NCBI GenBank assembly: GCA_039178805.1
Contig: JBCDFC010000001.1
Span: 534-64,533 of the forward strand
From: Pseudomonadota bacterium
GTDB taxonomy: Bacteria > Pseudomonadota > Alphaproteobacteria > Rhodobacterales > Rhodobacteraceae
Direction of reading: 5' to 3'
Length of the DNA: 64,000 nt
A program made the translations under genes and the position numbers. Under the pieces are notes generated by a model, which was not told where the DNA came from, did not search any database, and was given only the letters and a program-made list of their open reading frames with translations. The first letter of the stretch is position 1, and the number at the start of each line of letters is the position of its first letter. This document shows, one piece after another, positions 16,829 to 45,912 of the stretch.

Positions 16829-16839
16829 GGCGCTGCTGG

Positions 16840-17265
16840 TCACGAGAAGCGCAGGCGCTGCACTTCGGCTTGAATGTCTTGCTCGAGGTTCCGCACCCAC
16901 GAATTGTAGTTGGGATGTATGGTGGCGGCAGCCTCGTTGTATTCAAGGTTGGACGAGTCCTTGTAGAGGATCGAGAACGTCTCATCGTCGAAGAACACGT
17001 CCACAACCGCCGTGTGCTTGCCGCGCACGAGGATCCGTCCCTCGAGATGACCCGTTTCCAGACGTGAGAACGTCCACCCGCGGTTCGATCCAGCGCGAAT
17101 GATCGCGCGCTCGTACTCCGAGAGCGTGGGTTGCTGAGCCGAAGCTCCCGCTTCGGCTTGGTAGGGCAGTGACTCGATCGTAAGGACCGGGGTGGGCTGT
17201 CGGCAGCCAGCGAGGGCAAGCGCGACAACTGCCATCGCCAGGAATGCAGGCTTCGTCTTCGCCAT
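16840..17265 (-). CDS. Lipoprotein of unknown function
   Basis: Lipobox LAGC; C-terminal IHPNYNSWVRNL. Confidence 0.75.
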   Translation of the reverse strand: MAKTKPAFLAMAVVALALAGCRQPTPVLTIESLPYQAEAGASAQQPTLSEYERAIIRAGSNRGWTFSRLETGHLEGRILVRGKHTAVVDVFFDDETFSILYKDSSNLEYNEAAATIHPNYNSWVRNLEQDIQAEVQRLRFS

Positions 17266-17294
17266 CGATCAGTCTCCTCTTTGCAACTTTGAAA

Positions 17295-18068
17295 CTAACG
17301 CAACAATCCGAGCGCGATCAACAGTCCACGGGGGCGGAAGCCGCGCGCTGCGAGTAGGCGGGTGACAAGCGCGAAGATCCGTATGAAGTCCCAGATCGGG
17401 TGAAAATGGCTGGGGCGCAGGACATAGCCTTCCCGCCGCGCCTCGATCGGCACGGTCGCGAAGCGTGTTCCGCTGTCTGCTGCGTAGATGAGGATGGCGG
17501 TCTCGAAGAGAAAACCTTGGCTGTGCTTCTCGGGCACGCGCGCTTTCTCCCAAACCGCGCGGGGATAGAGCCGCATGCCGCATTGGGCGTCGCGAACGCG
17601 CTGCTTGGAGGCCCAGCCGATGAAGAAGTTCCCAAACGCGATACCCCAGGCGCGGTTGAGCGCCATGCCACGGAAGCCTGCGGAGCGATCGCCGAGGATG
17701 AGCGCGCCGGGCGCTCGGGAAGCGGCGTCCCTGAAGGCCTGGATCGATGCGGGATCGTGCTGGCGGTCCGCGTCGAGGGTGATCACGGCGGCCGCCTTCG
17801 CCTCGCCAAAGGCATTGGCCATGCCGTCGAGGAGTGCTGCACCCTTGCCTCCGTTGACGCTTCGCTGGATCAGTGTGGCGGCAGTGCTTGCAACCGCCTC
17901 GGCGGTCCCGTCGCTCGACCCGTCATCGACCACGATGACGCCTTCCACATGGGGCAGCGTCTGTTCGACCACCTCGCGAATGGTCTTAGCCTCGTTATGG
18001 GCCGGGATCAGCGCGAAGAGCGGGTGTGGACCGTTTCCGCGCTGAGGCGCCTCGTCAGCGGACGGCAA
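17295..18068 (-). CDS. Glycosyltransferase family 2 (DPM-synthase-like)
   Basis: IPAHNE, VVDDGSSDGT, NGGKGAAL, LDADRQH and DAQCGMRLYP. Confidence 0.88.
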   Translation of the reverse strand: MPSADEAPQRGNGPHPLFALIPAHNEAKTIREVVEQTLPHVEGVIVVDDGSSDGTAEAVASTAATLIQRSVNGGKGAALLDGMANAFGEAKAAAVITLDADRQHDPASIQAFRDAASRAPGALILGDRSAGFRGMALNRAWGIAFGNFFIGWASKQRVRDAQCGMRLYPRAVWEKARVPEKHSQGFLFETAILIYAADSGTRFATVPIEARREGYVLRPSHFHPIWDFIRIFALVTRLLAARGFRPRGLLIALGLLR

Positions 18069-18786
18069 GATACTCGGAGAAGCAGCCGAGATAGACGCGA
18101 TGTTCGGCCGTTCGGAAGCCTGCCTCCTTCATGATCTCGGCGATCTCGCCGCGATCCGTCATCTGCTCCATCGTGTCCCAGTAGTAGCGCATCAACCTGT
18201 AGGCCTCGCGATCCCGGCTGAAGACCAGCGTGAAGAACGGCAACAGGTGCTTGAAATAGAGGCGGAAGAAGAAGCGGCCGACGGCGTTGTCAGGCATTGT
18301 CACGTCCATGACAAGCGCCTTGCCCCCGCCCTTCAGCACACGCCGAAACTCACGAAAACTGTCCTCGAGATTGTCGACATGGCGGAGGGCGAAACCCATG
18401 GTCAGGAAGTCGAAGCTTTCATCCGCCACAGGCAGCGCCTCGGCGGTCGACTGATGGTGCACGGCCGGCACCGTTTTGCGCGACTCAGCGATCATCCCGG
18501 CCGAGGGTTCGACGCAGACGATTTGGTTCGGGCTCTTCACGATGCTCATCAGTGCGCGCGCAACAGGGCCGGTGCCCGAGGCCACGTCGATGACCCGCAT
18601 ATCCGGTTTCACACCGTTTCGCTGAAGCGCCCAGCGTCTGTAGGTGCCGCCTGAGCCAAACCAGCCCCAACGTGCGATGCCTTCATAATAAGGTGCTGTT
18701 TTATCGAAGATTTCACGCAGGAAATGCTGCTTCTCTTCGGCGGTTGCGTAGTGTTCGCAAACGACAAATGGCTTGCGCTTGTCCAT
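18055..18786 (-). CDS. Class I SAM-dependent methyltransferase (UbiE-like fold)
   Basis: VIDVASGTG, LPVADESFD, MGFALRHV and RVLKGGG. Confidence 0.88.
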   Translation of the reverse strand: MDKRKPFVVCEHYATAEEKQHFLREIFDKTAPYYEGIARWGWFGSGGTYRRWALQRNGVKPDMRVIDVASGTGPVARALMSIVKSPNQIVCVEPSAGMIAESRKTVPAVHHQSTAEALPVADESFDFLTMGFALRHVDNLEDSFREFRRVLKGGGKALVMDVTMPDNAVGRFFFRLYFKHLLPFFTLVFSRDREAYRLMRYYWDTMEQMTDRGEIAEIMKEAGFRTAEHRVYLGCFSEYLAVR

Positions 18787-24704: not shown

Positions 24705-24979
24705 GTCTCTGAGTGCTCCGAACCGCTGTGCTTACTCGTCGTGGCGACATCCCCGGCGTCCCGTCAGATCAGCCTCGGCAGGGGATCGCACACCGTTCTC
24801 TAGGCCTTCATGCGGCGCGTTGCGACGATCCTACCATGCAGCGTCAACTTGAATGCTGTCGTGCTTGCGCTTACTGAACGGCGTCCAGCTATGCGCGGCC
24901 CAGCCGGCGCTCGCCAGGTGAAGTCTCCTCGTATCCGTCGTCCGGCGTGCAGCGCCGTCTCGGTGCGAGGGTGCCTAAT

Positions 24980-27900
24980 ATGGCTGGAGAGCGCAGCTTG
25001 ACGAACGCCGTCAGAAGCACGGGCCTTTACGACAGCACGCGCGAACACAGCGCGTGCGGTGTTGGCTTTCTTACGCGCAAGGACGGGCGACAGACGCATG
25101 ACGTGCTTCTGAAGGGGCATGAGGCGCTCTGTGCCGTGCCTCATCGTGGCGGGATGTCTTCAGAAGGGGTTGGCGATGGCGCTGGCGTGTCGGTCGATCT
25201 TTCGCTTGGGTTTTTCAGCCGGCTGACCGGACGCACGCTCAAAGCCGGATCCTTTGGCGTCGGCAATTTTTTCCTGCCGGCCGATCCGGCGGCGCGGGCG
25301 AGGGCGCGCGGCATTGTCGATGACGCCTTGCGCGATGCGGGCTTCCAGACCCTGCTGAAGCGCGACCTACCGGTTGACGAGACCAAGATCGGACCCCGAG
25401 CGGTGCGGCAACAATTGCCGATCGAGCAGTGGATCTTCGCCGCGCCCGACGGTCTGGTCGGCGCTGCCCTCGACAGCCGTATCCATGGCGCGCTCCTCGC
25501 CATTGAAGCCATCGCCTACACCGAGCCTGAGTTGGACGGGCTCTATCCGCTGTCGCTTTCCGCGCGGATGCAAGTGTTCAAAGGGCGGCTAAACTCCTGG
25601 GAGATCGTCCCCTATTTCACCGATCTCTCGGATCCGGACCACGCGGTCCACACCATGTATTTCCACACCCGGTTCTCCACGAACACGGACCCGCATCCGA
25701 CCATGGCGCAGCCATTCCGCCTTATGGCGCATAACGGCGAGCTCAATACAGACAAGAAGAACAGGCTCTCGGAGACGGCGATTGCGCTGGCACGGAACAA
25801 GGCGATCGTGCGTCCGCGCGGGCAGTCCGACAGTTGCCGGTTGGATCAGACGCTGAACGCCCGGGTTTTCGAGGAAGGGCTGGATATCGTTGCGGCGGTC
25901 GTCGCGATGATGCCGCCTGCGTGGGAGAACGATACGCGCCTTAGCCCAAACGTGCGGGCGATGCTGGAGTACTTCTCGCTCTCCGAGGAGAAGAACGACG
26001 GGCCGGCCGCGCTGATCTTCGGAAACGGTACCATCATCGGGGCGCGGCTCGATCGGCTTGGGCTGCGGCCACTGCGTTCGGTCGAGACGGACGAGTATCT
26101 GGCGGTGATGTCGGAAGCGGGGCAGATCGCCTTCCCGCCCGAGACAGTGACGAAGCGCGGACGCGTCGAAGCGGGTGGCATGATCTATTGGGATCACGCT
26201 GAGGGCCGGGCCTATGAGACCGAGGAGGCGCTCGAGCTTTTAGCCGCCCAGGCGGATTACACGAGCCTGCTGAAGGCGGCGCAGGTCAACATCGATGATC
26301 TTCCCGCTGCCGAAGGCGATCGGAGGCTCGCTGCGACCCGGTATCTTGGCGATCTGGAGCAATCCGCGCGCTATGTCGCCTACACTCATAATCTGGAGAG
26401 CTTTAAGTTCCTGATGGACCCGATGCTTCAGTCCGGCGCTGAGAAAGTGTCGGCGATGGGCTATGGGAACGCGATCAACGCTCTCTCCGACAATGAGGGC
26501 GGTGTCGCGAAGTACTTCAGTCAGCGCTTCGCTCAGGTGACGAACCCCCCGCTCGACTCGATACGCGAGGCGGATGGAATGACCTTGCGGGTCGCGCTCG
26601 GTGAGAAGGCTCATCTTGGCCATTCGCGCTCGCGGCAGATCGTGGTCAACTCGCCGGTTCTTCGCATGGCCGATATGCTGAAGATCAAGGCACAGAGTGA
26701 GACGCCTTGGGATCAGTTCGAAATCCTCTACGCGCCTGTCTATGGCGACGCGAAAGCCAATGAAGCGGCGTTGGTCGAGGCGATCGATGCCGTGGCGAAC
26801 GAGGTCGTGGCCTTCGCCAGAGAGCGAGGTGGGATCGCGATCTTGACGGACCGCCATATCTCCCGCGAGCGGGCGGCGATGCCGATGACACTGGCCGTCT
26901 CCGCCATCAATCAGCGTCTGATCGAAGAGGGTCTTAGGCTCAAGCTCAGCCTGATCGTGGAGAGCGGGCAGATCGCCTCGTCGCATCACATCGCCTGCGC
27001 GCTCGGCTTCGGGGGATCGGCAGTCTACCCGCTGGCCGTCCGGTTGCGAGCGGAGGAGCTTTTCGGGGACGATGCGACCGCAGCGTATGTGAAGTTTCAG
27101 AAGGCGGCCGAGAAAGCCCTGATGAAGACCATGGGCAAGGTCGGTCTTTGCACGGTCGAGAGCTATTCGGGCGGCGAGTTCTTCGAGCCGAATTTCCTCG
27201 ACACCGATGACCCGGTCTTCGCCCGGTATCTGCCGAACATGAAGACACCGGTGGGTGGTGTGCGGTTCAACACGATTGCGCAGTCGGTGGCGGATTGGCA
27301 CGAGCGCGCGTTGAGCGTGACGGCCCCGTCCGAGATCCCGATGCTGGGGCTTTTCAAGGAGCGCTCTGAGGGTGCGGGACACAGCTATGGCACGACCGCC
27401 GTGCGCGGCTTCGTCGATCTGACCGAGGAGGCGATCGCCTTTGCCGGTGCCGAGGCGCCTGATGGTGAGACCGACCCCCTCCGCCTGCTGACCTTGCGCC
27501 AGTTGGACGATGCGTTCGGCATCGATGACCAGGGCTACATCAATACGAGCTTTGACAAGCTGACCCCCGCTGAGATCAACAGTTTCCGGATCACACCGGG
27601 CTACCGCGCGTTCTCGAGCATGATGGCGGCCGAGCGCCAACGCCGCCCGGCCGCGCTGCGCGACGTGTTGGACTTCCCGGCGGACATTACCTTTCTCGAC
27701 AAGGTTGCAGACATCAAACGTGAAATGATGCTGTTCAACCGGGCTGGGAACCGCGACTTCGTGATCCGCGGGATAGACTGTCAGGATCTGGGTAGTGGGG
27801 AGTTCCTGCTGCGGCTGACAGGCCCCAAGGCGCGGGATCTCGGCCGGCTCGATGCGCTCGCACAGTCGTTGATCGAACGTTTCGGCGCCGATCTTGAGGG

Positions 27901-30469
27901 CCACCACGTCACAAAGGGCGCGCTGAAAGTCGCGGCGAAAGGCTGGGCGCTCGACTATCTCTCACGCCTGCGCACGGCGCCTGAGCGGATCGAGCTGAGC
28001 GCGGTCGAGCCTGCATCTGCGATAACGCGGCGTCTTGCGTCGGGTGCCATGTCGCATGGTGCGTTGGTCGCCACCGCGCATGAGGCCGTGGCCCATGGCA
28101 CTAACATGGTCGGTGGCCTGTCGAACTCAGGCGAAGGCGGTGAGCATCTCAGCCGCTACGGCACGTTGCGCGCAAGCCGGATCAAGCAGTTCGCGAGTGG
28201 GCGCTTCGGCGTCTGGGCGGGGTACCTCGCGGATCCGTGCCTCGAAGAGCTTGAGATCAAGATCGGCCAGGGCGCCAAGCCGGGCGAAGGGGGGCAACTT
28301 CCGGCGCAGAAGGTCACGGTCGAGATTGCTGCGGCCCGTGGCGGCACGCCGGGTGTTGAGCTCGTGAGCCCACCACCGCATCACGACACCTACTCGATCG
28401 AAGATCTCGCCCAGCTCATCCACGACTGTAAGGCGGCGCGGAAGAAGGTCATCGTCAAGCTCGTAAGTTCCGAGGGGATCGGCACTATCGCCGTCGGGGT
28501 CGCGAAGGCCGGCGCCGATGTGATCAATGTCGCGGGCAATACGGGCGGCACGGGTGCTGCTTCGGTCACCTCGCTCAAATACACGGGGCGCGCGGCGGAG
28601 ATCGGCATCGCCGAGGTCCACCAGGCGCTTTCGCTGAACGGGATCCGGCAGAAGGTGTGGCTGCGCTGCTCTGGCGCGATGCAAACCGGCTCGGACGTTG
28701 TCAAAGCGGCGCTCCTCGGCGGCGACAGCTTCGAGTTCGGGACGACGGCGTTGATGATGCTGAAATGCGTCATGGCGAAGAACTGCAACGTGAAATGCCC
28801 TGCGGGCCTCACCACCAACCCCGAGGTCTTCGACGGCGATCCTCGTGCGCTTGCGCAGTATCTCTTGAACATCGCGCATGAGGTGCGGGAGATCCTGGCG
28901 CGATTGGGGCTACCTTCGATTGCGGCTGCCAGGGGGCGGTCGGATCTTCTGCATCTGCTCGATCATCCGGCCTCTGTCGGTCAGCTCAGCCTGCGTAACA
29001 TGCTCACGCGGGTGGATGAGAACCCGGTTGAGAACCCGGTCTATCTGGAGCGTGACTTCGCGCTCGACGACATGCTTGGCGAAGAGATCAGAGCGCGCCT
29101 TCTCTCCGGTGCCGAGGAGGCGATCACCTTGCGTGCCGAGGTGCCGCTCAACACCCGGAACAAAACCTTTGGAGGTCAGATCGCGATCGATGTCGAGCGG
29201 CGGCTGAACCATGAGGGGATCGTGCCGCGTGCCTCGTTCGAAAGCGCCCGGGGGCGGCGCTACTTGGATCACCGATCGGTCAGGATCGTGACCCATGGCG
29301 CGGCTGGGCAAAGCTTTGGCGCGTTCTGCAACGACGGCATGGTCCTTGAGCACACCGGCACCTGCAACGACGGGGTCGGCAAAGGTGCGTGCGGAGGAGA
29401 GATCGTCGTTCGGGCTCCGGCTGGCGGTGGTTCTGGCCAGGGGCAGAATGTGCTCATCGGCAATTTCGCGCTTTTCGGGGCGACCGGCGGGCGTACCTTC
29501 ATCGAAGGGGAGGCAGGCGACCGGTTCGCCGTGCGCAATTCGGGTGCGACCGCCGTCGTCGAAGGTGTGGGCGATTTCTGCGCCGAGTACATGACGAATG
29601 GCGCGGTATTGAACCTTGGCGGGTTCTCCAAGGGCTTCGGCAACGGCATGTCCGGCGGCTTTGCCTACCAGTACGACCCGGAAAACCGCTTGCTCGAACT
29701 GATGAGCCGCGACTCGGTCTTCTCCGGCCGGTTGGGCGATGGATCGGTCGAGGGCGAGATCCATACCGACGCCGTCAAGCAGTTGTTGACCTGGCATCTA
29801 GCGGCGACGGGATCCGCGAAGGCCAAGGCGTTGCTGGATCGTTGGGAGGATGTCCTGGGCGATTTCGCGTGGATCATGCCCAAGACGCTTCTGCAGTACC
29901 AAGATGCCGATGCGATCCTCGCGGCGCGGAGCCGTAAGGAGCTGATCGAGGAACTTTCGACGGCGCTCGCTGCGCATCAGATCGCTGAGCTCAAAGCGGC
30001 CTGGAAGTCCGGCACGCCGATCCATGGCGGTATCGCTCCGCTTCAGGCGGAGACTGATAGCGACACGATGCATCGTCTTCTCAACAGCTACACGGTTCTC
30101 GATGCTGCCCAGCGGCTGGCAGCAAAGCGCAGCGGGGGTGATGCGCTATCGCTCCAGAAACAGGCGCGCAACCTGATCCTGACCGAGGACTTCGCGCTCA
30201 TGTCGGTGCTGGCCAAGCACGCCAAGGCCGCGGTGTCGGACTATGACGATCAGGGCCTCGCGACGCTCGTGGCGCAGAAGCGGCTCGACGACTTCAAGCG
30301 CGCGCTCTCGCTCCGCAACATCCTCTCGATGGATAGCCCCGGCACCTATGCCTGGATCATCCATCAGGGCCGAAAGAACCGCGACGCCCTCGGCGCGATC
30401 CCGAGCTTCGACGAACTCTTTGCGCGCAGTGCTATGTCGGAGATCGCCTCGCGGCAGGCGGCTGAGTGA
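24980..30469 (+). CDS. gltB: Glutamate synthase large subunit, expanded variant (about 1830 aa)
   Basis: Ntn Cys (ACGVGF), HTRFSTNT, AHNGELN, FAQVTNPPLD, GQGAKPGEGGQLP, SPPPHHD, CVMAKNCNVKC Fe-S motif and GXGXG domain. Confidence 0.93.
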   Translation: MAGERSLTNAVRSTGLYDSTREHSACGVGFLTRKDGRQTHDVLLKGHEALCAVPHRGGMSSEGVGDGAGVSVDLSLGFFSRLTGRTLKAGSFGVGNFFLPADPAARARARGIVDDALRDAGFQTLLKRDLPVDETKIGPRAVRQQLPIEQWIFAAPDGLVGAALDSRIHGALLAIEAIAYTEPELDGLYPLSLSARMQVFKGRLNSWEIVPYFTDLSDPDHAVHTMYFHTRFSTNTDPHPTMAQPFRLMAHNGELNTDKKNRLSETAIALARNKAIVRPRGQSDSCRLDQTLNARVFEEGLDIVAAVVAMMPPAWENDTRLSPNVRAMLEYFSLSEEKNDGPAALIFGNGTIIGARLDRLGLRPLRSVETDEYLAVMSEAGQIAFPPETVTKRGRVEAGGMIYWDHAEGRAYETEEALELLAAQADYTSLLKAAQVNIDDLPAAEGDRRLAATRYLGDLEQSARYVAYTHNLESFKFLMDPMLQSGAEKVSAMGYGNAINALSDNEGGVAKYFSQRFAQVTNPPLDSIREADGMTLRVALGEKAHLGHSRSRQIVVNSPVLRMADMLKIKAQSETPWDQFEILYAPVYGDAKANEAALVEAIDAVANEVVAFARERGGIAILTDRHISRERAAMPMTLAVSAINQRLIEEGLRLKLSLIVESGQIASSHHIACALGFGGSAVYPLAVRLRAEELFGDDATAAYVKFQKAAEKALMKTMGKVGLCTVESYSGGEFFEPNFLDTDDPVFARYLPNMKTPVGGVRFNTIAQSVADWHERALSVTAPSEIPMLGLFKERSEGAGHSYGTTAVRGFVDLTEEAIAFAGAEAPDGETDPLRLLTLRQLDDAFGIDDQGYINTSFDKLTPAEINSFRITPGYRAFSSMMAAERQRRPAALRDVLDFPADITFLDKVADIKREMMLFNRAGNRDFVIRGIDCQDLGSGEFLLRLTGPKARDLGRLDALAQSLIERFGADLEGHHVTKGALKVAAKGWALDYLSRLRTAPERIELSAVEPASAITRRLASGAMSHGALVATAHEAVAHGTNMVGGLSNSGEGGEHLSRYGTLRASRIKQFASGRFGVWAGYLADPCLEELEIKIGQGAKPGEGGQLPAQKVTVEIAAARGGTPGVELVSPPPHHDTYSIEDLAQLIHDCKAARKKVIVKLVSSEGIGTIAVGVAKAGADVINVAGNTGGTGAASVTSLKYTGRAAEIGIAEVHQALSLNGIRQKVWLRCSGAMQTGSDVVKAALLGGDSFEFGTTALMMLKCVMAKNCNVKCPAGLTTNPEVFDGDPRALAQYLLNIAHEVREILARLGLPSIAAARGRSDLLHLLDHPASVGQLSLRNMLTRVDENPVENPVYLERDFALDDMLGEEIRARLLSGAEEAITLRAEVPLNTRNKTFGGQIAIDVERRLNHEGIVPRASFESARGRRYLDHRSVRIVTHGAAGQSFGAFCNDGMVLEHTGTCNDGVGKGACGGEIVVRAPAGGGSGQGQNVLIGNFALFGATGGRTFIEGEAGDRFAVRNSGATAVVEGVGDFCAEYMTNGAVLNLGGFSKGFGNGMSGGFAYQYDPENRLLELMSRDSVFSGRLGDGSVEGEIHTDAVKQLLTWHLAATGSAKAKALLDRWEDVLGDFAWIMPKTLLQYQDADAILAARSRKELIEELSTALAAHQIAELKAAWKSGTPIHGGIAPLQAETDSDTMHRLLNSYTVLDAAQRLAAKRSGGDALSLQKQARNLILTEDFALMSVLAKHAKAAVSDYDDQGLATLVAQKRLDDFKRALSLRNILSMDSPGTYAWIIHQGRKNRDALGAIPSFDELFARSAMSEIASRQAAE

Positions 30470-30473
30470 CATC

Positions 30474-32219
30474 ATGAACGCACCGAACTTCCCCGCCGAT
30501 GCACCGTTTTCCGAGGACCAGCGTGCCTGGATCTCCGGCTTCATGGCCGGCATGTCGACGCGCCTTCTGTCGGGGCAGGGCGATGCCGCGCCAGCGGGCG
30601 ACGCGGTCGTTGCGAAGCCGATCGACATCCTCTTCGGCACACAGACCGGTAATGCCGAGGAGGTGGCGAACGAGGCGGCCGAGCTGGCGCAGGCCCGAGG
30701 CTTCAAACCGCGAGTGACCGATCTCGACGCTGTGGAGATGGACGAGCTTGCCGGGTTGGAGACGCTGATCGTCGTGGTCTCGACCTATGGCGAAGGCGAG
30801 ATGCCCGACAATGCTCAACACTTTTGGGACGCGTTGAGCGCCAGTACGGCGCCGAGGCTCGAACAGCTCAACTACGCGGTGCTGGCGCTTGGCGACACGA
30901 GCTATGAGCATTTCTGTCAGGCCGGAAAGCTGATCGATACGCGGCTAGAACAGCTTGGCGCGCACAGGATGGCGGCACGCGTCGACTGCGACGTGGATTT
31001 CGAAGAGGTGGCGACGGCGTGGCTGTCCGAGGCGGTGCCCGAGACTGGCGGCCCCGCCGAGGAAGCGCCGAAGGAAGCAACGGCGCCAAAATCGCAGAAG
31101 TCGGGCTGGAACCGCAAGAACCCGTTCCCCGCTAGGGTGGCCGACAACCATGTGCTGTCGGGCCGGCGGTCGGCGAAGGAAATCCGTCATATCGCCTTCG
31201 AACTCGGCGACAGCGGGCTCACCTACGAGGCCGGCGATGCGCTAGGCGTGATGCCGATGAACGCGCCGGATCTGGTCGAGCGTTGGCTGAAGCGCCTTGG
31301 TGCGACCCATGACACGGCGGTCGCGGGCAAGGATGCATCGCTCGGCGATCTGCTCAGCTCGCAGCTTGAGATCATGACGCCCTCGAAGGAGCTCATTCGC
31401 GGTCTCGAACCCCTCCTCGGACATGCCGAGCTGAGCCATGTGTTGGGGATGTCGGAGAGCGATGCGCTGAGAGAGTTTCTCTGGGGCCGCGATGCGCTCG
31501 ATCTATTGGAGCTTAACCCGGATATCGCATTGGACCCGGCTGAGATCGTCGGCTGGCTGAAGCCGCTCCAACACCGCGCCTATTCGATTTCGTCGAGCCC
31601 CAAGGCGCATCCAGGTGAGGTGCATCTCACCGTGGCGGCGGTCAGATGGATGCGTGAGGAGCGGGAGCATCGCGGGGTCTGCTCGACCTTCCTTGCGGAC
31701 CACGTGCCCGAAGGCACCTCTGCAGGCATCTTCGTGTCGCCGAACAAAGCCTTCCGCGTGCCGGAGGATGATGCCCGCCCCATGATCATGGTCGGTCCGG
31801 GCACAGGCATCGCACCCTTCCGCGCGTTTCTCGAGGAACGGCGCGAGCGAGGTGCGCGTGGGACGAACTGGCTCTTCTTCGGCGACCAGCACCGTGAGCA
31901 TGATTTTATCTATCGGGATGAGATTGGAGAGATGAGCGCCTCGGGCCTTCTCACCCGTCTCGACCTCGCCTTCTCCCGCGATCAGGCGGACAAGATCTAC
32001 GTTCAGAACCGCATGTTGGAGAACGGTCGCGATCTTTTCGCTTTGCTTGAGGAGGGCGGTCATTTCTACGTCTGTGGGGATGCGAGCCGCATGGCCAAGG
32101 ATGTGGACGCGGCTCTGCATCAGATCATCGAAACCCAGGGTGCTCTGACGCCCGAGGCGGCAACGGAATACGTGAACCGCCTGAAGCGTGAGAAACGCTA
32201 CGTGCGGGACGTCTATTAG
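30474..32219 (+). CDS. CysJ-like diflavin (FMN/FAD) NADPH oxidoreductase
   Basis: N-terminal APFSEDQRAWISG, flavodoxin GTQTGNA/STYGEGE, RAYSISSS, GPGTGIAPFR, FSRDQ, YVCGDA and RYVRDVY; start ATG 30474. Confidence 0.92.
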   Translation: MNAPNFPADAPFSEDQRAWISGFMAGMSTRLLSGQGDAAPAGDAVVAKPIDILFGTQTGNAEEVANEAAELAQARGFKPRVTDLDAVEMDELAGLETLIVVVSTYGEGEMPDNAQHFWDALSASTAPRLEQLNYAVLALGDTSYEHFCQAGKLIDTRLEQLGAHRMAARVDCDVDFEEVATAWLSEAVPETGGPAEEAPKEATAPKSQKSGWNRKNPFPARVADNHVLSGRRSAKEIRHIAFELGDSGLTYEAGDALGVMPMNAPDLVERWLKRLGATHDTAVAGKDASLGDLLSSQLEIMTPSKELIRGLEPLLGHAELSHVLGMSESDALREFLWGRDALDLLELNPDIALDPAEIVGWLKPLQHRAYSISSSPKAHPGEVHLTVAAVRWMREEREHRGVCSTFLADHVPEGTSAGIFVSPNKAFRVPEDDARPMIMVGPGTGIAPFRAFLEERRERGARGTNWLFFGDQHREHDFIYRDEIGEMSASGLLTRLDLAFSRDQADKIYVQNRMLENGRDLFALLEEGGHFYVCGDASRMAKDVDAALHQIIETQGALTPEAATEYVNRLKREKRYVRDVY

Positions 32220-32227: not shown

Positions 32228-33196
32228 TTGACGCGCCCTTGGTCCCGCTGCTGCTCGCGCCCGGAGCGGTTCTGTTTCTGCCGATTGCGGGGAGAGGCGC
32301 CCAGCAGCTTGGAGGCACTGCGGGCGAGGACGGTTGTACAGACGCTGGCGGCAGGCCTCGAAGAACTCGCGATGATCGGTACCTACTTCGATGACGCACT
32401 GATCACGACGCGCAACAGCGGCGCGCTTATCTCCGGTCGTGGCGGTTACGCTGCGGTTCAGCGGGCGCGGTCGCCCTGGCGATTGTCGCCTGGGCGGGTC
32501 GCGATACGGATCGCTCCGACAAGCGCCGCGACCCTCGCGCGTAGTGATATGGACCGGGACACGCGGCTGCCGGGATCGCTGGTTGCGCTCGATCCGGGTG
32601 GAGCGGTTTTTCATCGGGTGCAGTACGTCTCGGCATCCGATCGTCGCGTGGCCGAGGCTCTTGAGGCAGGGGAGCCTGAGATGGGGACACGGGACGATGC
32701 CGAGCGGGGCAACGTCGTCCACCTCGCGCAGGTGAGATCCGCGCGTGCTTGCTGGGAGGCGATGACCTCCGGCGATCACATGGACGCCCTCCTGGTCGAT
32801 GCGGGCCGCTCACGTCGCAGGATCATGCCGTATCTTGGCGCAAACAGAGCATGGCGCGTATCAGCAGCGCCATTGCCGAGCTTTCTCGCGTATCTCGTCG
32901 AAAGGCGGATCGGCTTGACGAGGGTGGTGCTGGGCTGCGGCCTCCTCCAGGCAGCGACTGGGCCGATCGGTAGAGTCGCACATGGTGACGGCCAGCTGAT
33001 CGCGTCGAGCGACAGCGGCATCTTCGCCGTGAGCAGCGACCGCATCGACTGCATCTGGGTCGTAACGACGAGAGACGGGTGGCAACTGGAACTCTACGAC
33101 GCAGAGGCGAGGGCGCTTGCAGTCCTCATGCCGGACCCGATGGCGAACAGATCTCAGTGGAATGAGATGCTCTGCTCACTCCCGAGAACGCCTTGA
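32228..33196 (+). CDS. Divergent HemS/ChuS-like heme-handling protein
   Basis: TRN, WEAMT..H, AWRV, IWVV and LELYD motifs appear in HemS order; start uncertain. Confidence 0.55.
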   Translation: MTRPWSRCCSRPERFCFCRLRGEAPSSLEALRARTVVQTLAAGLEELAMIGTYFDDALITTRNSGALISGRGGYAAVQRARSPWRLSPGRVAIRIAPTSAATLARSDMDRDTRLPGSLVALDPGGAVFHRVQYVSASDRRVAEALEAGEPEMGTRDDAERGNVVHLAQVRSARACWEAMTSGDHMDALLVDAGRSRRRIMPYLGANRAWRVSAAPLPSFLAYLVERRIGLTRVVLGCGLLQAATGPIGRVAHGDGQLIASSDSGIFAVSSDRIDCIWVVTTRDGWQLELYDAEARALAVLMPDPMANRSQWNEMLCSLPRTP

Positions 33197-33359: not shown

Positions 33360-33799
33360 TGAGTATGTGAGGTCGAAAAGCGCTCTAGCAGGGCGACGGT
33401 CGGTGCCTCGCCGTTCTGCTGTACGACCGGGCTTCCGTTCGATTGTTGTGGGCCGTCCTTCCCGGACTGACCGGAAATAGGCCCGCTCGCCGTGGGATCG
33501 ACGTAGGACGCATTGATGAAGTGCGGTGCCTCTCGACCATGAGTTGCGATCCGCGACTCGCTGAGAGTATTTTGCCCTGGCCAACAGCGACGATCCGTCG
33601 CGAATGGGGTTGTTCGATCTCAGCCAGCAGCATCGGCCGCGGAGGGCTGGATCCCAGGAACCTGCCAGAACCGTGAACTCAGCATCTCGCCGGAAGATGG
33701 CTGCGAAACCGCTAAATCGCTGAAAGTGCAAACTTCTCGGTCGGATTTACGCTGCGTTTAGGATCGTTTGATTCTCTCTTAGCGTGTGTTAAGAACTCT

Positions 33800-33822
33800 A
33801 AAAACAATCAAGAGTTGTTTTT
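33800..33822. promoter_or_regulatory. 8-7-8 inverted repeat upstream of the LuxR regulator
   Basis: aaaaacaa-tcaagag-ttgttttt in an AT-rich tract. Confidence 0.45.
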
Positions 33823-33857
33823 CATTGTGCGCTGCGAGCACCTTCCGGTTGGTCGAA

Positions 33858-34508
33858 ATGACAAGGATCTCCGATACGATGTCTCCATCGAAATCGCGCC
33901 TGGTCATCGCGGATAGCCATGAGGTCGTTCGCGAAGGAATCGCGGCCCGCCTGCAGTCTTGCTCGGTCGAATTGGTCGGTCAGGCAGCGGACGGATACTC
34001 TACCATCAAGATCTGCCGGCAACTGGCGCCGGATCTGCTCATCATGGATCTCTCACTCACGCGTCCATCGGGTACGGAGACTTTGGCGAAGCTCCGGGCG
34101 AGCCTTCCGGACATGCGGATCGTCGTGTTGTCGTCGGAGGCGAAGACGGCGGACGCGTTCACCGTCCTTGGGCACGGGGCGATCGGGTTCATGCCGAAAC
34201 AAGCCAAGGGATCCGACTTCGTGAACGCAGTTCGCGCCGCGATTGCTGGATACACCTGTGTGCCAAGTGCCTATCTCGCGGAATTCGTCACCTTCCGGCG
34301 CAATCTGAGCCGCACCGGGAATTCTTACGGCTTGTCTCGGCGCGAGTTGGAGGTGCTTGAAGCGTGCGCCTCGGGCCAGCGAACCAAGGAGGTCGCCGAG
34401 CGGTTCAATATTAGCGTGCGCACGGTCGAGACGCATCGCAACGCGATCTACCGCAAAACCTCCTGCCACGATCTGAAGGAACTATACCGCAACCTTCAGA
34501 CCGAGTGA
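33858..34508 (+). CDS. NarL/FixJ-family response regulator (REC + LuxR HTH), orphan, likely T3SS regulator
   Basis: VIADSHEVVREG, LIMDLSL, GFMPK and LSRRELEVL...ISVRTVETHR; start 33858 or 33879. Confidence 0.9.
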   Translation: MTRISDTMSPSKSRLVIADSHEVVREGIAARLQSCSVELVGQAADGYSTIKICRQLAPDLLIMDLSLTRPSGTETLAKLRASLPDMRIVVLSSEAKTADAFTVLGHGAIGFMPKQAKGSDFVNAVRAAIAGYTCVPSAYLAEFVTFRRNLSRTGNSYGLSRRELEVLEACASGQRTKEVAERFNISVRTVETHRNAIYRKTSCHDLKELYRNLQTE

Positions 34509-34651
34509 GGCGTGCACGACAGCTGCGAGGCGGATCTACGCATCCATCCACGCGGGCTTGACGTATCGACAGTAGGTAGACGCTTTCGCTACAACCCAAG
34601 GTAAGGTGGGTGATCGATGGGGATGTGCCCGCCGGAGAGGTGGGTGATGGT

Positions 34652-35356
34652 ATGGCGTCGATTTCCGCAAGGCCGACCGAAACGGTCGATCCAGCCCTAC
34701 ATGACGGATCGATCGACCCTTCTCAGATTCCGAGCCACTGGCTAGTGGCTGGCGACCTGGAGCCCGAGCCGTTGCCGGCGGCGGACGACGACCTCTCCGC
34801 GGCGCATCATCTGATCAATCAGCGGTTGCAGCGCCTGCTGGGTGATGATGCCACGACCGAAGTGGTGGGGCACGTTCTCGACGGCGCCTATCGCGGTGAG
34901 CGCGACGCGCTTGTGCAATCGACGCTCGACTCAGCACTTGTCGGTGTCGCCGAGCGCGGGCTGGTCTTCGATGTCGTACCGGCCGAGACGGGGATGCCGG
35001 AGATGGCGGAGATCGGCGAGACGCTCCTTCCAGACGGCGTCGACGCGGCCATCGTGTTTCCCACCGATGCGGACCCCGCGATCATCGTGGCTGCCGATCT
35101 GGGTCTGCGTGACGTGCTGCTCGCGGTGCAGGACGGTGCGGTCAACGTGCTCTTCAACGAGATTGAGCTGTTGGGGATTGGGCCCCTCCGTCCCTCCGCG
35201 GTGAGTGAGCTTCGCACATTGATCGACGAGGGCTCGTTGCCGCAGGCGAACCCGAACGATGTCCACGCGCTCGATGACGGTGTGACGGGCGAAGATCGCG
35301 GGCCGCTGGTGAGCGTTGCCTATCGCGGCCGCATTCTCGAGGGCGAGATGCTCTGA
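34652..35356 (+). CDS. Acidic hypothetical protein upstream of sctJ (candidate T3SS substrate)
   Basis: Long ORF with host-like codons, D/E-rich, no signal peptide; alternative start 34610. Confidence 0.7.
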   Translation: MASISARPTETVDPALHDGSIDPSQIPSHWLVAGDLEPEPLPAADDDLSAAHHLINQRLQRLLGDDATTEVVGHVLDGAYRGERDALVQSTLDSALVGVAERGLVFDVVPAETGMPEMAEIGETLLPDGVDAAIVFPTDADPAIIVAADLGLRDVLLAVQDGAVNVLFNEIELLGIGPLRPSAVSELRTLIDEGSLPQANPNDVHALDDGVTGEDRGPLVSVAYRGRILEGEML

Positions 35357-35529
35357 TCGCGCGCCGCGCTCAGCACTGCGCCGGCCTCATCGCGCTACCG
35401 GGAACCCTACGTGGAACGGAGCCGGTTGCGTAGGGAAGCACTATCGAACTCCTTCGACAGATACTCATTCTGGGCACGTGATCGAGGCCCGGACCTTTTC
35501 CGGGCGGTAGTCCCGGTGAGGTTACACAG

Positions 35530-36318
35530 ATGGTCGGTTCGATCCTCGGGCGTGGTTCGATGCTCGGTACAGGACTCGCACTCGTCTTGTTGGTCGCCGC
35601 ATGCAAGCAGGACGTTTACAGCGGCCTAGACGAGCATCAGGTGAACGAAATGGTCGCCGTTCTCGCGTCGCACGGCATCGAAGCCCGCCGCGACCGCGAC
35701 AAGGACGGGACATTCGTACTGCAGGTTTCGGACGCGGAAGTCGCACCGGCGATCACGCTACTGCGCGAGGCCGGCCTGCCGCGCGTGACCTTCGAGACGC
35801 TCGGCGAGGTGTTCAGCGCAGGCGGGGTGTTCGGTACGCCGTTCGAACAGCATGCACGCTACGTCCACGCGATGAATCAGGAGCTGTCAGCCACGATCAC
35901 CGCGATCGACGGCATCCGCTTTGCCAAGGTCCTGGTCACAGCGCCTCAGAAAGGGCGGTTCGACCAGGAGGCGCCACCCGCCACCGCATCTGTCGCGATC
36001 CACTACGAGAGGGGCCGGGACGTCCGCTCTCAGCTTTCCTCAATCAAGATGCTGGTCGCCCATGCGCTGCCGAACCTCGACTACGACGACGTGGCCGTTG
36101 CGATCTTTGAGGCAGGCGGTCCGGTCGTTGCGGAGCGGCTCGAACAGCCGCTGGCAAAGCCCGGCTCGCCGCTACCTGCGCGGGCAGGCATCCTCGTGCC
36201 GTCGGGACCGGAGACTCGCGCGTGGCTGCAGGCAAACCGTATCGAGCTCATCGTCGGGTTCTTCGCCCTCTCCATCGTACTCGCCTTCCTGTGGATCGTT
36301 CGGAAGGTGTCGCCGTGA
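35530..36318 (+). CDS. sctJ: T3SS inner-membrane ring lipoprotein
   Basis: Lipobox VAAC, YSGLDEHQVNEMVAVL, GLPR and QELSATI; C-terminal TM helix. Confidence 0.93.
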   Translation: MVGSILGRGSMLGTGLALVLLVAACKQDVYSGLDEHQVNEMVAVLASHGIEARRDRDKDGTFVLQVSDAEVAPAITLLREAGLPRVTFETLGEVFSAGGVFGTPFEQHARYVHAMNQELSATITAIDGIRFAKVLVTAPQKGRFDQEAPPATASVAIHYERGRDVRSQLSSIKMLVAHALPNLDYDDVAVAIFEAGGPVVAERLEQPLAKPGSPLPARAGILVPSGPETRAWLQANRIELIVGFFALSIVLAFLWIVRKVSP

Positions 36319-36890
36319 TGTTGCCGCCAGTGCATGCGGAGTGGCTGGAGCGTTGGGCGCCTGAGCTGCGCGACGCAGACCTGCGCGCGGCCTTGATCGG
36401 GTCGGGGCGCTTCCACGGCCGGGTTGAAGCAGCACTGGCGGCTGATTTCCTGTCGCTGCCAGCGGAGAACGCGCCCGAGGAGGCCGACGACGGTCACGTC
36501 GCGCAGATCCTGGACGGTGTGGACGACGAGGCCGTGCTTAGGGCCGGCCTTGGATGGTGTGCGCCGGCGCTTGCTACGTCGCTGAAACCCTTGGACGCCT
36601 TCCCAGAGATTGCGGCGACACGCGGACGGTTGCAGCTTTTGGTGAGCCAACGCGATCATGAGGCGGCCGGCGAAGTCGTCGCGCCGCGCGATGCTGAGGA
36701 GATCAAGCGCGAGGGCCGTGCCTGCCTCGCCGCATGGTTTCGAACGCATCCACGCGGTGCTGCGGCGCGGGCCAGGCTCCGTCTCGCACCAGCTCAGACC
36801 GCGGCGACATCCGAGACCCACCTGATCCCGATCCGTGCGGAGATCTACGAGGCCGCGCTCGCCAGCCTCGGATCGGAGGCCGCAGCATGA
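36318..36890 (+). CDS. Putative SctK/NolU-position sorting-platform linker
   Basis: Lies between sctJ and sctL, overlapping both; contains a P..H.EW motif. Confidence 0.6.
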   Translation: MLPPVHAEWLERWAPELRDADLRAALIGSGRFHGRVEAALAADFLSLPAENAPEEADDGHVAQILDGVDDEAVLRAGLGWCAPALATSLKPLDAFPEIAATRGRLQLLVSQRDHEAAGEVVAPRDAEEIKREGRACLAAWFRTHPRGAAARARLRLAPAQTAATSETHLIPIRAEIYEAALASLGSEAAA

Positions 36891-37537
36891 ACGCCCCGCT
36901 CGTCGCCGTCAGGATCGATGCAGCGGAGGCCGAGCGGCGGATTGCGGCGAGCCGCGCTGTCGGGCGCGATGCGGATGCCGCGATCGATGAGGCACGGGCA
37001 ATCGTCGAGACCGCTCGACGTGAGGCGCGGTCGGTTGCTGCCATGGCGCGGGCCCACGAAGTGGAGCGCGGGAAGGCGCTTCATGCGATCGCGGAGGACA
37101 CCGTCGACCGTTATCTCGACACCAAGAAAGTCGAAGCGGCGGCCGAGGCCGCGGCGCGCCTGCTCCGAGATGCAGGACGGATCCGGGCAGAGTTCGACGC
37201 GCTCACTCCGTGGCTCACGGATTTCCTGCGTGACGCGGTCACTAGGCTCGTCGGCACGCTCGACGACGACGAGCTGCTGTCGAGGCTCGTGGCCGAGGGT
37301 TTGGCGAGCCAGAAGGATGCACGACAGGTCGTGATCCGGGTCGCACCGAAGGATATCGAGCGTCTTGAGGCTGCGCGCAGCGTGCATCCGTTGCGCTTTG
37401 CCGGTGTAGCGGAGATCCGCGCCGATGGGTGTCTCAAACCGGGTGCTGTGCTCCTCGAAGGACCGGGCGGGGTGCTCGAGGCAGGGCTCGAGACCCAGCT
37501 CGACATCCTTTGCCGAGAGCTTGAGGCGCTGGAATGA
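36887..37537 (+). CDS. sctL: T3SS stator (FliH/SctL family)
   Basis: Ala/Glu coiled coil, then VIRVAPKD...LKPGAVLLE.PGGVLEAGLETQL; precedes the ATPase. Confidence 0.85.
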   Translation: MNAPLVAVRIDAAEAERRIAASRAVGRDADAAIDEARAIVETARREARSVAAMARAHEVERGKALHAIAEDTVDRYLDTKKVEAAAEAAARLLRDAGRIRAEFDALTPWLTDFLRDAVTRLVGTLDDDELLSRLVAEGLASQKDARQVVIRVAPKDIERLEAARSVHPLRFAGVAEIRADGCLKPGAVLLEGPGGVLEAGLETQLDILCRELEALE

Positions 37538-38850
37538 TCGCCGACACAAGGCTTAAGGCGGCCCGTGCCGCGATCAGGCGCGCGCCGCTCCGTCCGACGA
37601 CGGGCCGTGTTGCGGGGCTCAAAGGTCCTGTCATCCGCGCTCGACTGGCTGGCGCTCGGGTCGGCGGGTTGTGCTGGATCGACTGCGGCGCCCAGCCACC
37701 CCTTCGTGCCGAGGTGGTTGGGGTCGATGGTCCGCATGCTGTGATGAGCCCGTTCGGGACGACCGAAGGGCTTACGGAAGGGGCTGCGGTTCGGCAGTCG
37801 AACGGTGGGCTGTCGATTGCGGCTGGGCCCGGTCTTCTCGGCCGGATCGTCGATGCCTTCGGCGTTCCCGTGGATGGGCAGGGGCCGTTGGCTGGGCAGA
37901 CTTGGCGCGCACCCATCCGGCGGGGTGCGCCCGAGGCAGTGGCGCGCCCGCTGGTCGAGGCTGCGCTGAACACAGGCATTCGCGCAATCGACGCGATGGC
38001 GACGCTCGGCCGCGGCCAGCGCCTGGCGATCTTCGGCCCGCCGGGTACGGGCAAGTCCTCGCTCTTGGCCTCGATCGCGCGCGGAGCTGCGGCGGATGTC
38101 ATCGTGATCGGCCTTGTCGGCGAGCGCGGGCGCGAAGTGCGCGAGTTCACGGCGAAGGAACTTCCAGCCGAGCTGCGTGCTCGGGTGGTTTGCGTCGCGG
38201 CGACCTCGGACAGACCCGCAAGCGAGCGGATCCTCTGTGCGCAGAGCGCCACGGCGATCGCTGAGTTCTTCCGGGATCGCGGGAACTCGGTGCTCCTGAT
38301 GATCGACAGTATCACGCGCACGGCGCGGGCGCTTCGCGAAGTGGGGCTCGCAGCGGGTGAAGCACCCACGAGGCGAGGCTATCCGGCTTCGGTCTATCCG
38401 GCGCTTCCTGCGATCATCGAACGAGCGGGTCGCACGGAAAAAGGCGATATCACAGCGCTCTACACTGTGCTTGTTGAGGACGAAGGCGAAGGCGATCCGA
38501 TTGCCGATGAGATGCGCAGCCTCACGGACGGTCACCTGACGCTGTCGCGCAAGCTGGCCGAGAGCGGCCACTGGCCGGCGATCGACGTGCTCGACAGCCT
38601 AAGCCGGCTGATGGCCACCGTCGCGCCCCGCGAACAGATCGAGGCGGCTGCGTTGGCACGGCGCCACCTGGCCAAGTACCGCGACATCGAGCTGCTCCTG
38701 CAGGTCGGTCAATATGCCGAGGGCGTCGACCGGGAGGCGGATGCGGCGATCAAGGCGAAACCGGCGCTCGACCGCTTTCTGCGTCAGAACCCTGCGGAGC
38801 GTGTCGATCCGGCTGCGATGCGAGCCGCACTGCGTGAGGCGGTTCGATGA
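37534..38850 (+). CDS. sctN: T3SS ATPase
   Basis: Walker A GPPGTGKS, GERGREVREF, DSITR, GYPASV and WPAIDVLDSLSR. Confidence 0.95.
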   Translation: MIADTRLKAARAAIRRAPLRPTTGRVAGLKGPVIRARLAGARVGGLCWIDCGAQPPLRAEVVGVDGPHAVMSPFGTTEGLTEGAAVRQSNGGLSIAAGPGLLGRIVDAFGVPVDGQGPLAGQTWRAPIRRGAPEAVARPLVEAALNTGIRAIDAMATLGRGQRLAIFGPPGTGKSSLLASIARGAAADVIVIGLVGERGREVREFTAKELPAELRARVVCVAATSDRPASERILCAQSATAIAEFFRDRGNSVLLMIDSITRTARALREVGLAAGEAPTRRGYPASVYPALPAIIERAGRTEKGDITALYTVLVEDEGEGDPIADEMRSLTDGHLTLSRKLAESGHWPAIDVLDSLSRLMATVAPREQIEAAALARRHLAKYRDIELLLQVGQYAEGVDREADAAIKAKPALDRFLRQNPAERVDPAAMRAALREAVR

Positions 38851-39341
38851 GCCGCCGCGCTGCTGAGACACTGAGGCTTCTTCATCGACTGCGGGAAGCG
38901 GCGCGGGACGGTGCGCGGGCGCGGCTTGCCCTCGCCAATCGTGAGGTGCGTCGCCTGAAGGCCGAGACGGAGGCCAAGGAGGTGCGGCACGCGCATCTCG
39001 CGACGGTTGCGGAGCAGTATATGCCGCAAGCAATCCGTGACCTCGGCCCGACCCGGGATGGCGCCTCGGTCTATGCGTCGCTGGCGGTCGGGGCTTCTGA
39101 AACCGCTCGTGTCGCGCGCGTGGCGGCGGGCGATCTGAACGCCATGCGCAAGCGCCAGACCGAGGCTGCGGCGGGCGTCGATCTGGCTGCTTCTGCGTAT
39201 GTCGGATCGGTCGCTGAGGCGGCGGCCATCGGGCGACGATCGGCGGAAGTCGAAGGCGCAATGACAAAGCGTGCGGCACGCCGCCAAGACGATGAAGCCG
39301 TCGATACCTGGTCAGCGCGGCGCAGTGGTGGCGGGAACTGA
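38847..39341 (+). CDS. sctO: Putative stalk protein
   Basis: Coiled-coil protein of about 160 aa directly after sctN. Confidence 0.65.
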   Translation: MSRRAAETLRLLHRLREAARDGARARLALANREVRRLKAETEAKEVRHAHLATVAEQYMPQAIRDLGPTRDGASVYASLAVGASETARVARVAAGDLNAMRKRQTEAAAGVDLAASAYVGSVAEAAAIGRRSAEVEGAMTKRAARRQDDEAVDTWSARRSGGGN

Positions 39342-39344
39342 TCG

Positions 39345-40466
39345 ATGCGCGACCTAACCGATGAGATCCCATCGCCGGAAGGGTCGGTTGAGGCGCTCGA
39401 CATCGCGGCTCTGATCGCGGGTCTGCCTGACGGCACCTGTCCACCGGATACCACGGTGCAGCGAGGGCAGATCGCGCTTGCACCACAGATAGCCGTGTCG
39501 GTGGAACTCAGCAGCGCTGGTGAGCTGCGAGACGCGGAACCGAACGATCTCGCGCTGGCGGCTTCCGCCGGCGATCTGGCGGCGCATATGCGGCTGCCTC
39601 GCGATCTCGTCGGTGCGCTGGCGCGGCGCTTCGGTTTCTCCATCGAGGTTGCCGCGCAGTCCGAGAGCACGCTTGCGATGGTGACGGAGTACTTGCTGGC
39701 CACCGCGGCCCAACCGCTTGAGAGGGCTCTCAATGGTGATCTGAGGCTGATCCCTACGGCCGACGAGCCCACCGGCGACGAGATGTTTTCGCTTGTCGTG
39801 ACGGTGGGGGATGAGCGTCACCAGGCGATGATGAGCGTGAGTGGAGAGACCGCGCGCAAGATCCGTCATCTCTTCCCAGCGCCTGTCGAACAGGCCCGGG
39901 TGCAGCTGTCCGACGCGATGGCGATCCCGGTCGCGGTGCAGAGCCCAGGGTTTGATCTCTGTGCCCGCGATCTTGATGCGTTTTGTCCCGGCGACGTCCT
40001 GCTCCTCGATCCGCGTTGGCGGCCTGAGGCCGATCTTGCGCTTGTCTCGGGCGCTCAGCGCCTCGGAACGGTCGAGCGAGCTGGAGCCGGACGCTACACC
40101 CTCGCCGCCGTGGCGGACCCTACGACGCCCAAGCCCGACGAAAGGACCGAGACCATGGCCACCCCCGCAACACTCGAAACGACGAGCGGCAAACCCCAGC
40201 AACCGTCGCCTGCCAAGTTGGCCGCACCGGCCGGCTCCGCGGTTCAATCGACGCTCGACACGCTGACCGTCACCGTGAGCGTTGAGGTTGATCGGACTGA
40301 GATGACGCTCGCGGATCTCCGCAGCCTCGCCGTGGGGTCGGTTCTGGAGTTCGAGGGCGATGGCCTCGAACGCGTCGCGATTTTGGCCAATGGCACGCCG
40401 TTGGCGAAGGGTGAACTGGTTCGCGTCGGCGATCGTACCGGCGTCCGCCTCGTGGCGCTCGACTGA
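39345..40466 (+). CDS. sctQ: C-ring / sorting-platform protein
   Basis: C-terminal SpoA domain (LADLRSLAVGSV...GELVRVGDRTGVRL). Confidence 0.88.
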   Translation: MRDLTDEIPSPEGSVEALDIAALIAGLPDGTCPPDTTVQRGQIALAPQIAVSVELSSAGELRDAEPNDLALAASAGDLAAHMRLPRDLVGALARRFGFSIEVAAQSESTLAMVTEYLLATAAQPLERALNGDLRLIPTADEPTGDEMFSLVVTVGDERHQAMMSVSGETARKIRHLFPAPVEQARVQLSDAMAIPVAVQSPGFDLCARDLDAFCPGDVLLLDPRWRPEADLALVSGAQRLGTVERAGAGRYTLAAVADPTTPKPDERTETMATPATLETTSGKPQQPSPAKLAAPAGSAVQSTLDTLTVTVSVEVDRTEMTLADLRSLAVGSVLEFEGDGLERVAILANGTPLAKGELVRVGDRTGVRLVALD

Positions 40467-40484
40467 GCGCGGACGGTCTCGGCG

Positions 40485-41129: not shown

Positions 41130-41131
41130 TC

Positions 41132-41401: not shown

Positions 41402-41413
41402 GGCTGGGCACCG

Positions 41414-45815: not shown

Positions 45816-45843
45816 GGTTCGCGGTCTTGGTCTTCGAAATGGC

Positions 45844-45877: not shown

Positions 45878-45912
45878 TCTCCGGTCGCAGCCGGCAGACA
45901 CTCTGTCCTCGA

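Follow-up and report, generated by a model that had tools for sequence, protein, structure and literature searches.

A long glutamate synthase subunit apparently paired with a CysJ-like diflavin reductase in Rhodobacterales and other bacteria

In the part of PMC8097209 consulted here, glutamate synthase is described as an NADPH-dependent enzyme with GltD, a ferredoxin-dependent enzyme (Fd-GltS) and a fused NADH-dependent enzyme. The canonical electron chain given there runs through FAD, two [4Fe-4S] clusters, a [3Fe-4S] cluster and FMN; Fd-GltS is fed single electrons, and flavodoxin substitutes for ferredoxin under iron depletion. Here we describe a locus in a 64,000-nt stretch of DNA (the window) from a Rhodobacteraceae bacterium (contig JBCDFC010000001.1 of assembly GCA_039178805.1, genome G000 below), in which a gene for a long glutamate synthase alpha subunit (GltB) is followed by one for a CysJ-like FMN/FAD/NADPH diflavin reductase. 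We refer to this gene pair as the cassette. The pairing is real and conserved, and the enzyme is an apparently undescribed glutamate synthase variant whose likely electron donor is the diflavin reductase.

The locus shares with the GltB-GltD enzyme (Azospirillum brasilense structures 1ea0, 2vdc and 6s6s; Bacillus subtilis 7mfm) the four-domain alpha subunit, Cys1, Met479, the synthase-site residues, the three cluster cysteines, a two-gene operon and predicted use of NADPH. It differs in its partner, a diflavin reductase that lacks the two [4Fe-4S] clusters of GltD, and in its alpha subunit, which is ~310 aa longer and has a Cx5Cx3C cluster loop and a changed FMN-site loop. As in Fd-GltS (Synechocystis 1llw), electrons would likely arrive one at a time from a small acidic carrier domain at the cluster; unlike in Fd-GltS, they would be carried by a flavodoxin domain that has an NADPH/FAD module of its own and is either fused to GltB or encoded next to it, and the hosts are mostly heterotrophs. 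The reductase has the FMN-FAD-NADPH architecture and motifs of CysJ (6efv, 9c91), P450 reductase and NOS, as a modular donor to a metal centre, but it falls below the CysJ equivalog cut-offs TIGR01931 and NF008197 (601 vs. 668), stands beside a sirohaem protein in none of the 80 loci surveyed below, and has GltB as its predicted client. A third gene product is homologous over its full length to HemS/PhuS/ChuS proteins, with the haem-site His and Arg mostly kept, but is divergent and encoded behind a glutamate synthase. We found no description of the GltB-diflavin pair or of its leader in a literature search that mostly did not extend to subscription papers, and supplements (PMC1698941, iron transcriptomes) could list the genes.

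The long GltB and its reductase

The first-pass annotation had gltB ending at 30469 and a complete diflavin reductase beginning at 30474. Both readings hold, the second position being an ATG, and Pfam places Flavodoxin_1, FAD_binding_1 and NAD_binding_1 in the 581-aa product. The FMN, FAD, 2'-phosphate and C-terminal motifs hardly vary among 55 GltB-linked reductases. The flavodoxin domain of the reductase is acidic (27 D/E vs. 8 K/R), and the protein scores above the cut-off of NF004859, 'sulfite reductase subunit alpha' (465 vs. 432). The same diflavin module is fused to molybdopterin enzymes in P0233-P0239, a reuse as donor module.

All four GltB domains (GATase_2, central, FMN and GXGXG) are found in order in the window open reading frame by Pfam. 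Residue numbers here count from ATG 24980, and canonical numbers follow the mature A. brasilense protein. In a conservation alignment of 75 rows (the window, 63 loci, 4 distant relatives and 7 fusions), the catalytic Cys1, which is preceded by a short propeptide in long GltB, is present in 72 rows, that is, in all 72 having a residue at that position. Met479, K937, Q943, R957, E978 and K999 are each present in 75 of 75 rows, and the cluster ligands are equally invariant (Table 1). We take K937, Q943, R957 and E978 to be residues of the synthase (2-oxoglutarate) site. The roles of Cys1 and Met479 in GltB are described in the consulted part of PMC8097209. Together, these residues make it likely that the cassette GltB runs glutamate synthase chemistry.

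The protein nevertheless stands apart from its canonical counterpart. It scores 1031 bits against the NCBIfam equivalog NF008730, below the cut-off of 1047, while the canonical GltB of G000 reaches 1715, and the two proteins are 30% and 41% identical in two segments. The Cx5Cx3C cluster loop is one residue shorter than the canonical Cx5Cx4C, and in the FMN-site loop D1070 is replaced by S (75/75) and G1072 by A (73/75). The second half of an insertion before the FMN barrel models as a small alpha/beta domain. Fold searches with the insertion (best Z 5.5) and with a C-terminal all-helical domain (best Z 5.9) returned nothing above background, which is not proof of a new fold in either case. Further, 41 K/R positions of long GltB are conserved specifically within the family, including K1272 beside a cluster Cys and 11 in the C-terminal domain. 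Translation of the window gene probably starts at TTG 24998 rather than ATG 24980, because GGAG lies 8 nt upstream, the database protein has 1823 aa and the start of most relatives lies 19 codons ahead of the catalytic Cys.

Table 1. Features of the cassette and its surroundings, in window coordinates
Feature	Position	Strand	Detail
Bipartite leader element, candidate RNA-level control site	24884..24918	+	TCCAGC 24884, CCCAGCC 24899, GCCAGG 24913
CTGGAG Shine-Dalgarno region, complementary to CCAG sites	24984..24989	+	predicted paired in folded leader (z only -1.5)
Long-type glutamate synthase alpha subunit (GltB)	24998..30469	+	1823 aa from TTG, 1829 aa from ATG 24980
Insertion between central domain and FMN barrel	27392..27964 (residues ~805-995)	+	~150 aa more than canonical; by alignment
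Fe-S ligands C1263, C1269, C1273	28766..28798	+	75/75 each; aligned to solved GltB
C-terminal all-helical domain, family-specific, ~190 aa	29897..30466 (residues ~1640-1829)	+	model pLDDT 90
CysJ-like FMN/FAD/NADPH diflavin reductase, without Fe-S motif	30474..32219	+	581 aa; Pfam and NCBIfam
HemS/PhuS/ChuS-like protein	32228..33196 (start 32228 or 32309)	+	8 nt past reductase end

Conservation of the pairing across genomes

Scanning genomes for the C-terminal domain of long GltB gave 119 relatives, and the best 80 of these make up our locus set. They are mostly Rhodobacterales-like and extend to Planctomycetota, Verrucomicrobiota and Actinomycetota (four phyla). The reductase gene lies directly downstream of long gltB in all 80 loci (78 at -10 to 300 nt, 2 overlapping), as it does in all three plasmid records opened. 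The first-pass annotation had called for a neighbourhood survey showing conserved linkage and missing gltD, and this is what we find: gltD and sirohaem genes each occur in 0 of the 80 loci (2.7-20.6 kb each), and no ferredoxin is present among the recurring neighbours scanned.

Full GltB-flavodoxin-FAD-NADPH fusions account for 7 of 23 matches among longer proteins, two of them named Lentisphaera, and at the fusion junctions the GltB C-terminal domain continues straight into the N-terminal helix motif of the reductase. P0143, a garbled fragment, was left out of this count. In 17 cassette-free congeners at least 91% complete, a diflavin reductase is found in none (E 1e-30) and a CysI-like protein in 16; the same reductase query matched in five of five cassette genomes. 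In three of these five, no diflavin reductase besides the linked one was found and a CysI-like gene is present elsewhere, and a side role for another client is possible.

Among the first 50 genomes surveyed for GltB, 32 have both the canonical and the long form (two-system) and 18 only the long form (long-only). GltD is matched in 31 of the 32 and unmatched in 16 of the 18, and thus tracks canonical rather than long GltB. The other 30 genomes comprise 13 two-system, 16 long-only and 1 with broken canonical fragments (the GltD search covered the first 50), so that 34 of 80 genomes have no GltB besides the long form. In all four long-only genomes opened, gltDB is cleanly gone, with uppP abutting the mtgA-side genes, while a control keeps gltDB; this loss is suggestive of long GltB supplying glutamate. 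Taken together, the linkage, the seven fusions, the CysI-like proteins without a reductase and the missing GltD support the earlier proposal of a distinct glutamate synthase with a diflavin partner, and they make it very probable that the reductase is the dedicated electron donor of long GltB.

Either system may be caught in decay: long gltB is broken by a TAG in one two-system genome (L050, G124), and canonical gltB is in fragments on contig C26 of G111, where the cassette with its HemS-like gene is kept. Both are possible snapshots of such loss.

The first-pass annotation had also seen no gltD, ferredoxin or cysI/nirA haemoprotein gene in the window. This stands for the window, where neither the GltD nor the sirohaem protein of G000 found a match when used as a query and the ferredoxin motif CxxCxxCxxxC occurs in no frame, but not for the genome (4.7 Mb, 86% complete), which encodes canonical gltD-gltB on contig C73 (both above NCBIfam cut-offs), a NirA-family haemoprotein on C27 and a CysI-like protein on C14. 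Because canonical gltD-gltB lies elsewhere in G000, the window cassette is a second system and not the sole glutamate synthase. It is possible that long GltB uses GltD in trans in G000, where GltD sits beside canonical gltB. On C27 (L010, 4253-11919), a nitrate-reductase-like gene, the NirA-family gene and a second CysJ-like flavoprotein gene form a single run, probably a diflavin-fed nitrite reductase. This CysJ-like protein is 40% identical to the GltB-linked reductase; in a quick reductase tree it sits on a long branch at an open fork, and monophyly of the GltB-linked reductases is not established there.

Behind the cassette, the window encodes a LuxR-type response regulator and then a type III secretion-like cluster (33786-49000) with YscJ, ATPase, C-ring, FliP, export proteins, FHIPEP and a rhizobial Y4yQ-like domain. 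Elsewhere it carries a cluster of an AMP-binding enzyme, a halogenase-like flavoprotein and ketoacyl synthase (6229-18786), possibly a lipid or secondary-metabolite pathway, and, on the minus strand, a gene for a 1089-aa protein with G8, CEMIP-like beta-helix and DUF4214 domains (52538-55807).

The third gene, the leader and iron

The third gene product was identified as HemS/PhuS-like by Atlas and by a profile against a solved HemS (E 1.5e-28). The window protein itself has no Pfam match, but its relatives have one. A His is kept in 25 and an Arg in 30 of 31 proteins at positions that we take to be the haem-site residues of HemS proteins; the two-domain fold of the family is recognised as well, and the protein is a putative haem binder. 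By profile, the gene lies directly downstream of the reductase in 36 of 80 loci. It is present in 34 of 42 two-system vs. 1 of 30 long-only genomes, a count that omits eight loci (seven that end too soon past the reductase and one with a broken canonical copy). The combination of long-only state and missing HemS-like gene appears in ~7 groups of a fast reductase tree, and one sister pair with 100% support is split in this way. Genes for siderophore-interacting proteins (SIP), FecCD, binding proteins or TonB systems occur in 23 of 80 loci, a raw count without matched background; their presence in 16 of 42 two-system vs. 6 of 30 long-only genomes is a smaller difference than that of the HemS-like gene. 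A second, separate HemS-type match lies near a TonB receptor on contig C66 of G000.

A bipartite CCAGC…GCCAG element precedes the cassette; it was found post hoc, by a motif search of two-system, HemS-bearing leaders. Within 55-105 nt before the start, GCCAG occurs in 27 of 31 two-system vs. 0 of 23 long-only alphaproteobacterial leaders (the 23 include one without a called start). Among 1024 pentamers it comes out top, and four of five two-system loci without HemS have it as well. Because the GCCAG background is 7.9%, its absence from long-only leaders is not significant by itself (p 0.15). The half-sites lie 0-5 nt apart or are split by spacers of unrelated sequence, of which 8 of 10 fold better than shuffles (z < -1.5), and such well-folding, unrelated spacers favour an RNA-level element. 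Further, folding predictions pair the Shine-Dalgarno region with sequence upstream of it more frequently among two-system leaders.

Of 2091 leaders in G000, 7 carry the bipartite form, including those of long gltB, a siderophore-interacting gene and a TonB receptor. Eight G000 leaders have at least three sites: those of long gltB, SIP, a TonB receptor, ALA dehydratase, a class-V aminotransferase (presumably cysteine-desulfurase-like) and three genes without an iron-handling role. Six of the seven antisense controls were scanned, and none is an iron gene. The loci include 13 alphaproteobacterial SIP genes, and GCCAG stands upstream of 8 of them (background 16%). Ketogulonicigenium, which was not part of the discovery set, combines the complete element with the HemS-like gene and a siderophore uptake cluster adjoining the cassette.

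Other lineages carry other sites. Two rhizobial cassette copies lack the leader element, and one of the two has an exact RirA pattern. In eight of eight related actinobacterial leaders, an IdeR-like box has 3-4 mismatches to the consensus (0 of 100 shuffles each). Upstream of the alphaproteobacterial loci, ICE, RirA-like and Iron-Rhodo-like patterns are not enriched. Rfam gave no match for the two leaders scanned, a promoter scan gave 0 sigma-70 sites, and we found neither a palindromic operator common to all loci nor a trans factor reading the leader element.

Several candidates were set aside. Inspection by eye ruled out a conserved leader peptide, as the GCCAG sites are spread over the three frames counted from the start. 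On contig C3 of G000 (~11250; L107 1740-1800), six CTGG repeats lie within an inverted repeat between an HlyIII-family gene and a flavin oxidoreductase; an antisense RNA candidate here is not conserved at the site in five of five relatives. A pattern search for antisense-type RNAs in 25 genomes gave many matches, and the 13 opened lay mostly in coding frames and had no common locus.

Related repeats occur elsewhere. In the long-only genome G064, ~7 tandem GCCAG units lie in the leader of a PNPOx/CREG-barrel gene, which we presume to be HugZ-like, divergent from long gltB (C1 ~2504570; L121 1490-1530). In G122, CCCAGCCAG repeats stand in tandem ~220 nt ahead of a ribonucleotide reductase gene (L152 1497-1520), and six copies of GCCAG lie close to the end of a contig (L151 1480-1545). 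Rhodococcus leaders (L098-L101, L088-L094) carry, besides the IdeR-like box, a second conserved palindrome with a GCTTC-N3-GAAGC core ~160 nt before the catalytic Cys codon.

Proposed mechanism and its alternatives

On balance, we favour an operon in which a GltB with an intact catalytic set is served by a diflavin reductase replacing GltD and which backs up the canonical enzyme under iron starvation; its iron-linked role, taken separately, is rather probable on the comparative data. As in CysJ and P450 reductase, NADPH would reduce FAD first and then the FMN bound by the acidic flavodoxin domain. The flavodoxin domain would dock at the ferredoxin/GltD site, with the reductase tethered by the C-terminal helical domain of long GltB, and by analogy with Fd-GltS may pass single electrons directly to the three-Cys cluster and from there via Met479 to the GltB FMN, so that long GltB converts glutamine and 2-oxoglutarate to two glutamates. 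With a flavodoxin domain in place of the GltD clusters, such a system would need 3 irons vs. 11 in GltBD. In genomes retaining GltBD, iron-rich conditions would keep the cassette off, through the CCAGC/GCCAG leader in Rhodobacterales-like hosts and through RirA- or IdeR-type boxes outside them; where GltBD is lost, the leader and the HemS-like gene would be dropped and the cassette would become a housekeeping enzyme.

A number of observations weigh against this scheme. RNAalifold gives no consensus fold for the leaders, and a named helix is 80% paired with covariation not above shuffles. Genome-wide, the motif is not enriched over antisense (330 vs. 347 of 2091 leaders), only 6 of 12 TonB-receptor leaders of G000 carry it, and neither an ICE nor an Iron-Rhodo-like box lies upstream of the G000 cassette. 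Two long-only genomes have a GltD-like match (42% in one, 32% in the other), most long-only genomes are metagenome-assembled genomes of unstated completeness, and kin among them are not independent. The four clean-loss genomes form one clade, and each has a GdhA-like gene, so the argument that long-only genomes must use long GltB for want of glutamate dehydrogenase fails. Finally, the altered FMN-site loop and shorter cluster loop mean that redox properties or substrate could differ.

The strongest competitor, which we consider unlikely, is that the cassette is indeed a diflavin-fed glutamate synthase but a mobile, redundant isozyme that spares no iron, with the HemS-like gene and leader reflecting shared ancestry or another signal. 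Its spread is patchy (long GltB is matched in 9 of 36 congeners, strongly in 8), plasmids carry copies, G000 lacks a classic iron box at the cassette, and three of its eight top motif leaders belong to genes without an iron-handling role. Against it, three lineages have three different iron-type cis elements, SIP, FecCD, binding-protein or TonB genes lie in 23 of the 80 loci, and the HemS-like gene is lost in ~7 separate long-only groups, including within a sister pair.

It is more doubtful that the donor is the same and the product another, whether a different keto-acid or amine or the outcome of a reverse reaction. The low identity to canonical GltB, the sub-threshold equivalog score, the altered FMN-site and cluster loops and the two added domains would fit such a change, but the glutaminase and 2-oxoglutarate-site residues are invariant, no conserved pathway genes are found among the neighbours of long gltB in the loci, and long GltB is the sole GltB in 34 of 80 genomes. 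Least probable is that the reductase mainly serves the HemS-like protein in haem breakdown, or a sulfite or nitrite reductase in trans, with long GltB fed by GltD, ferredoxin or free flavodoxin: the HemS-like gene next to it in 36 loci and the three genomes where it is the sole diflavin reductase found would suit that role, but it is kept in all 44 loci without a HemS match and fused to GltB in seven proteins, CysI-like proteins occur without it in 16 of 17 congeners, and the NirA gene of G000 has its own partner.

The diflavin-fed, iron-linked glutamate synthase can be extended to a bolder picture, which we put forward tentatively and with more doubt than confidence. It would form a third donor class, induced by iron starvation in marine alphaproteobacteria through an undescribed RNA-level regulon, in which CCAGC/GCCAG sites common to siderophore, haem and Fe-S genes are read by a small RNA or RNA-binding protein and the HemS-like protein acts as a haem sensor or iron scavenger; lineages losing GltBD would shed both controls.

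In Caulobacter under iron limitation, gltB falls 2.5-fold and gltD 2.3-fold while an unrelated CysJ-like gene rises 12-fold, according to the part of PMC3751524 consulted. If our reading is true, the cassette explains how ammonium is assimilated while iron-sparing responses lower canonical GltBD, and a flavin-only donor adds a class to a central enzyme of nitrogen assimilation. Current annotation as 'sulfite reductase' and 'glutamate synthase-related' leads metabolic models to misplace both genes. Shimia, Yoonia, Ketogulonicigenium and Rhodococcus are cultured hosts in which these readings are testable, and the leader element offers a handle on post-transcriptional iron control in Rhodobacterales, for which a 2006 regulon paper left the regulator of iron uptake unidentified.

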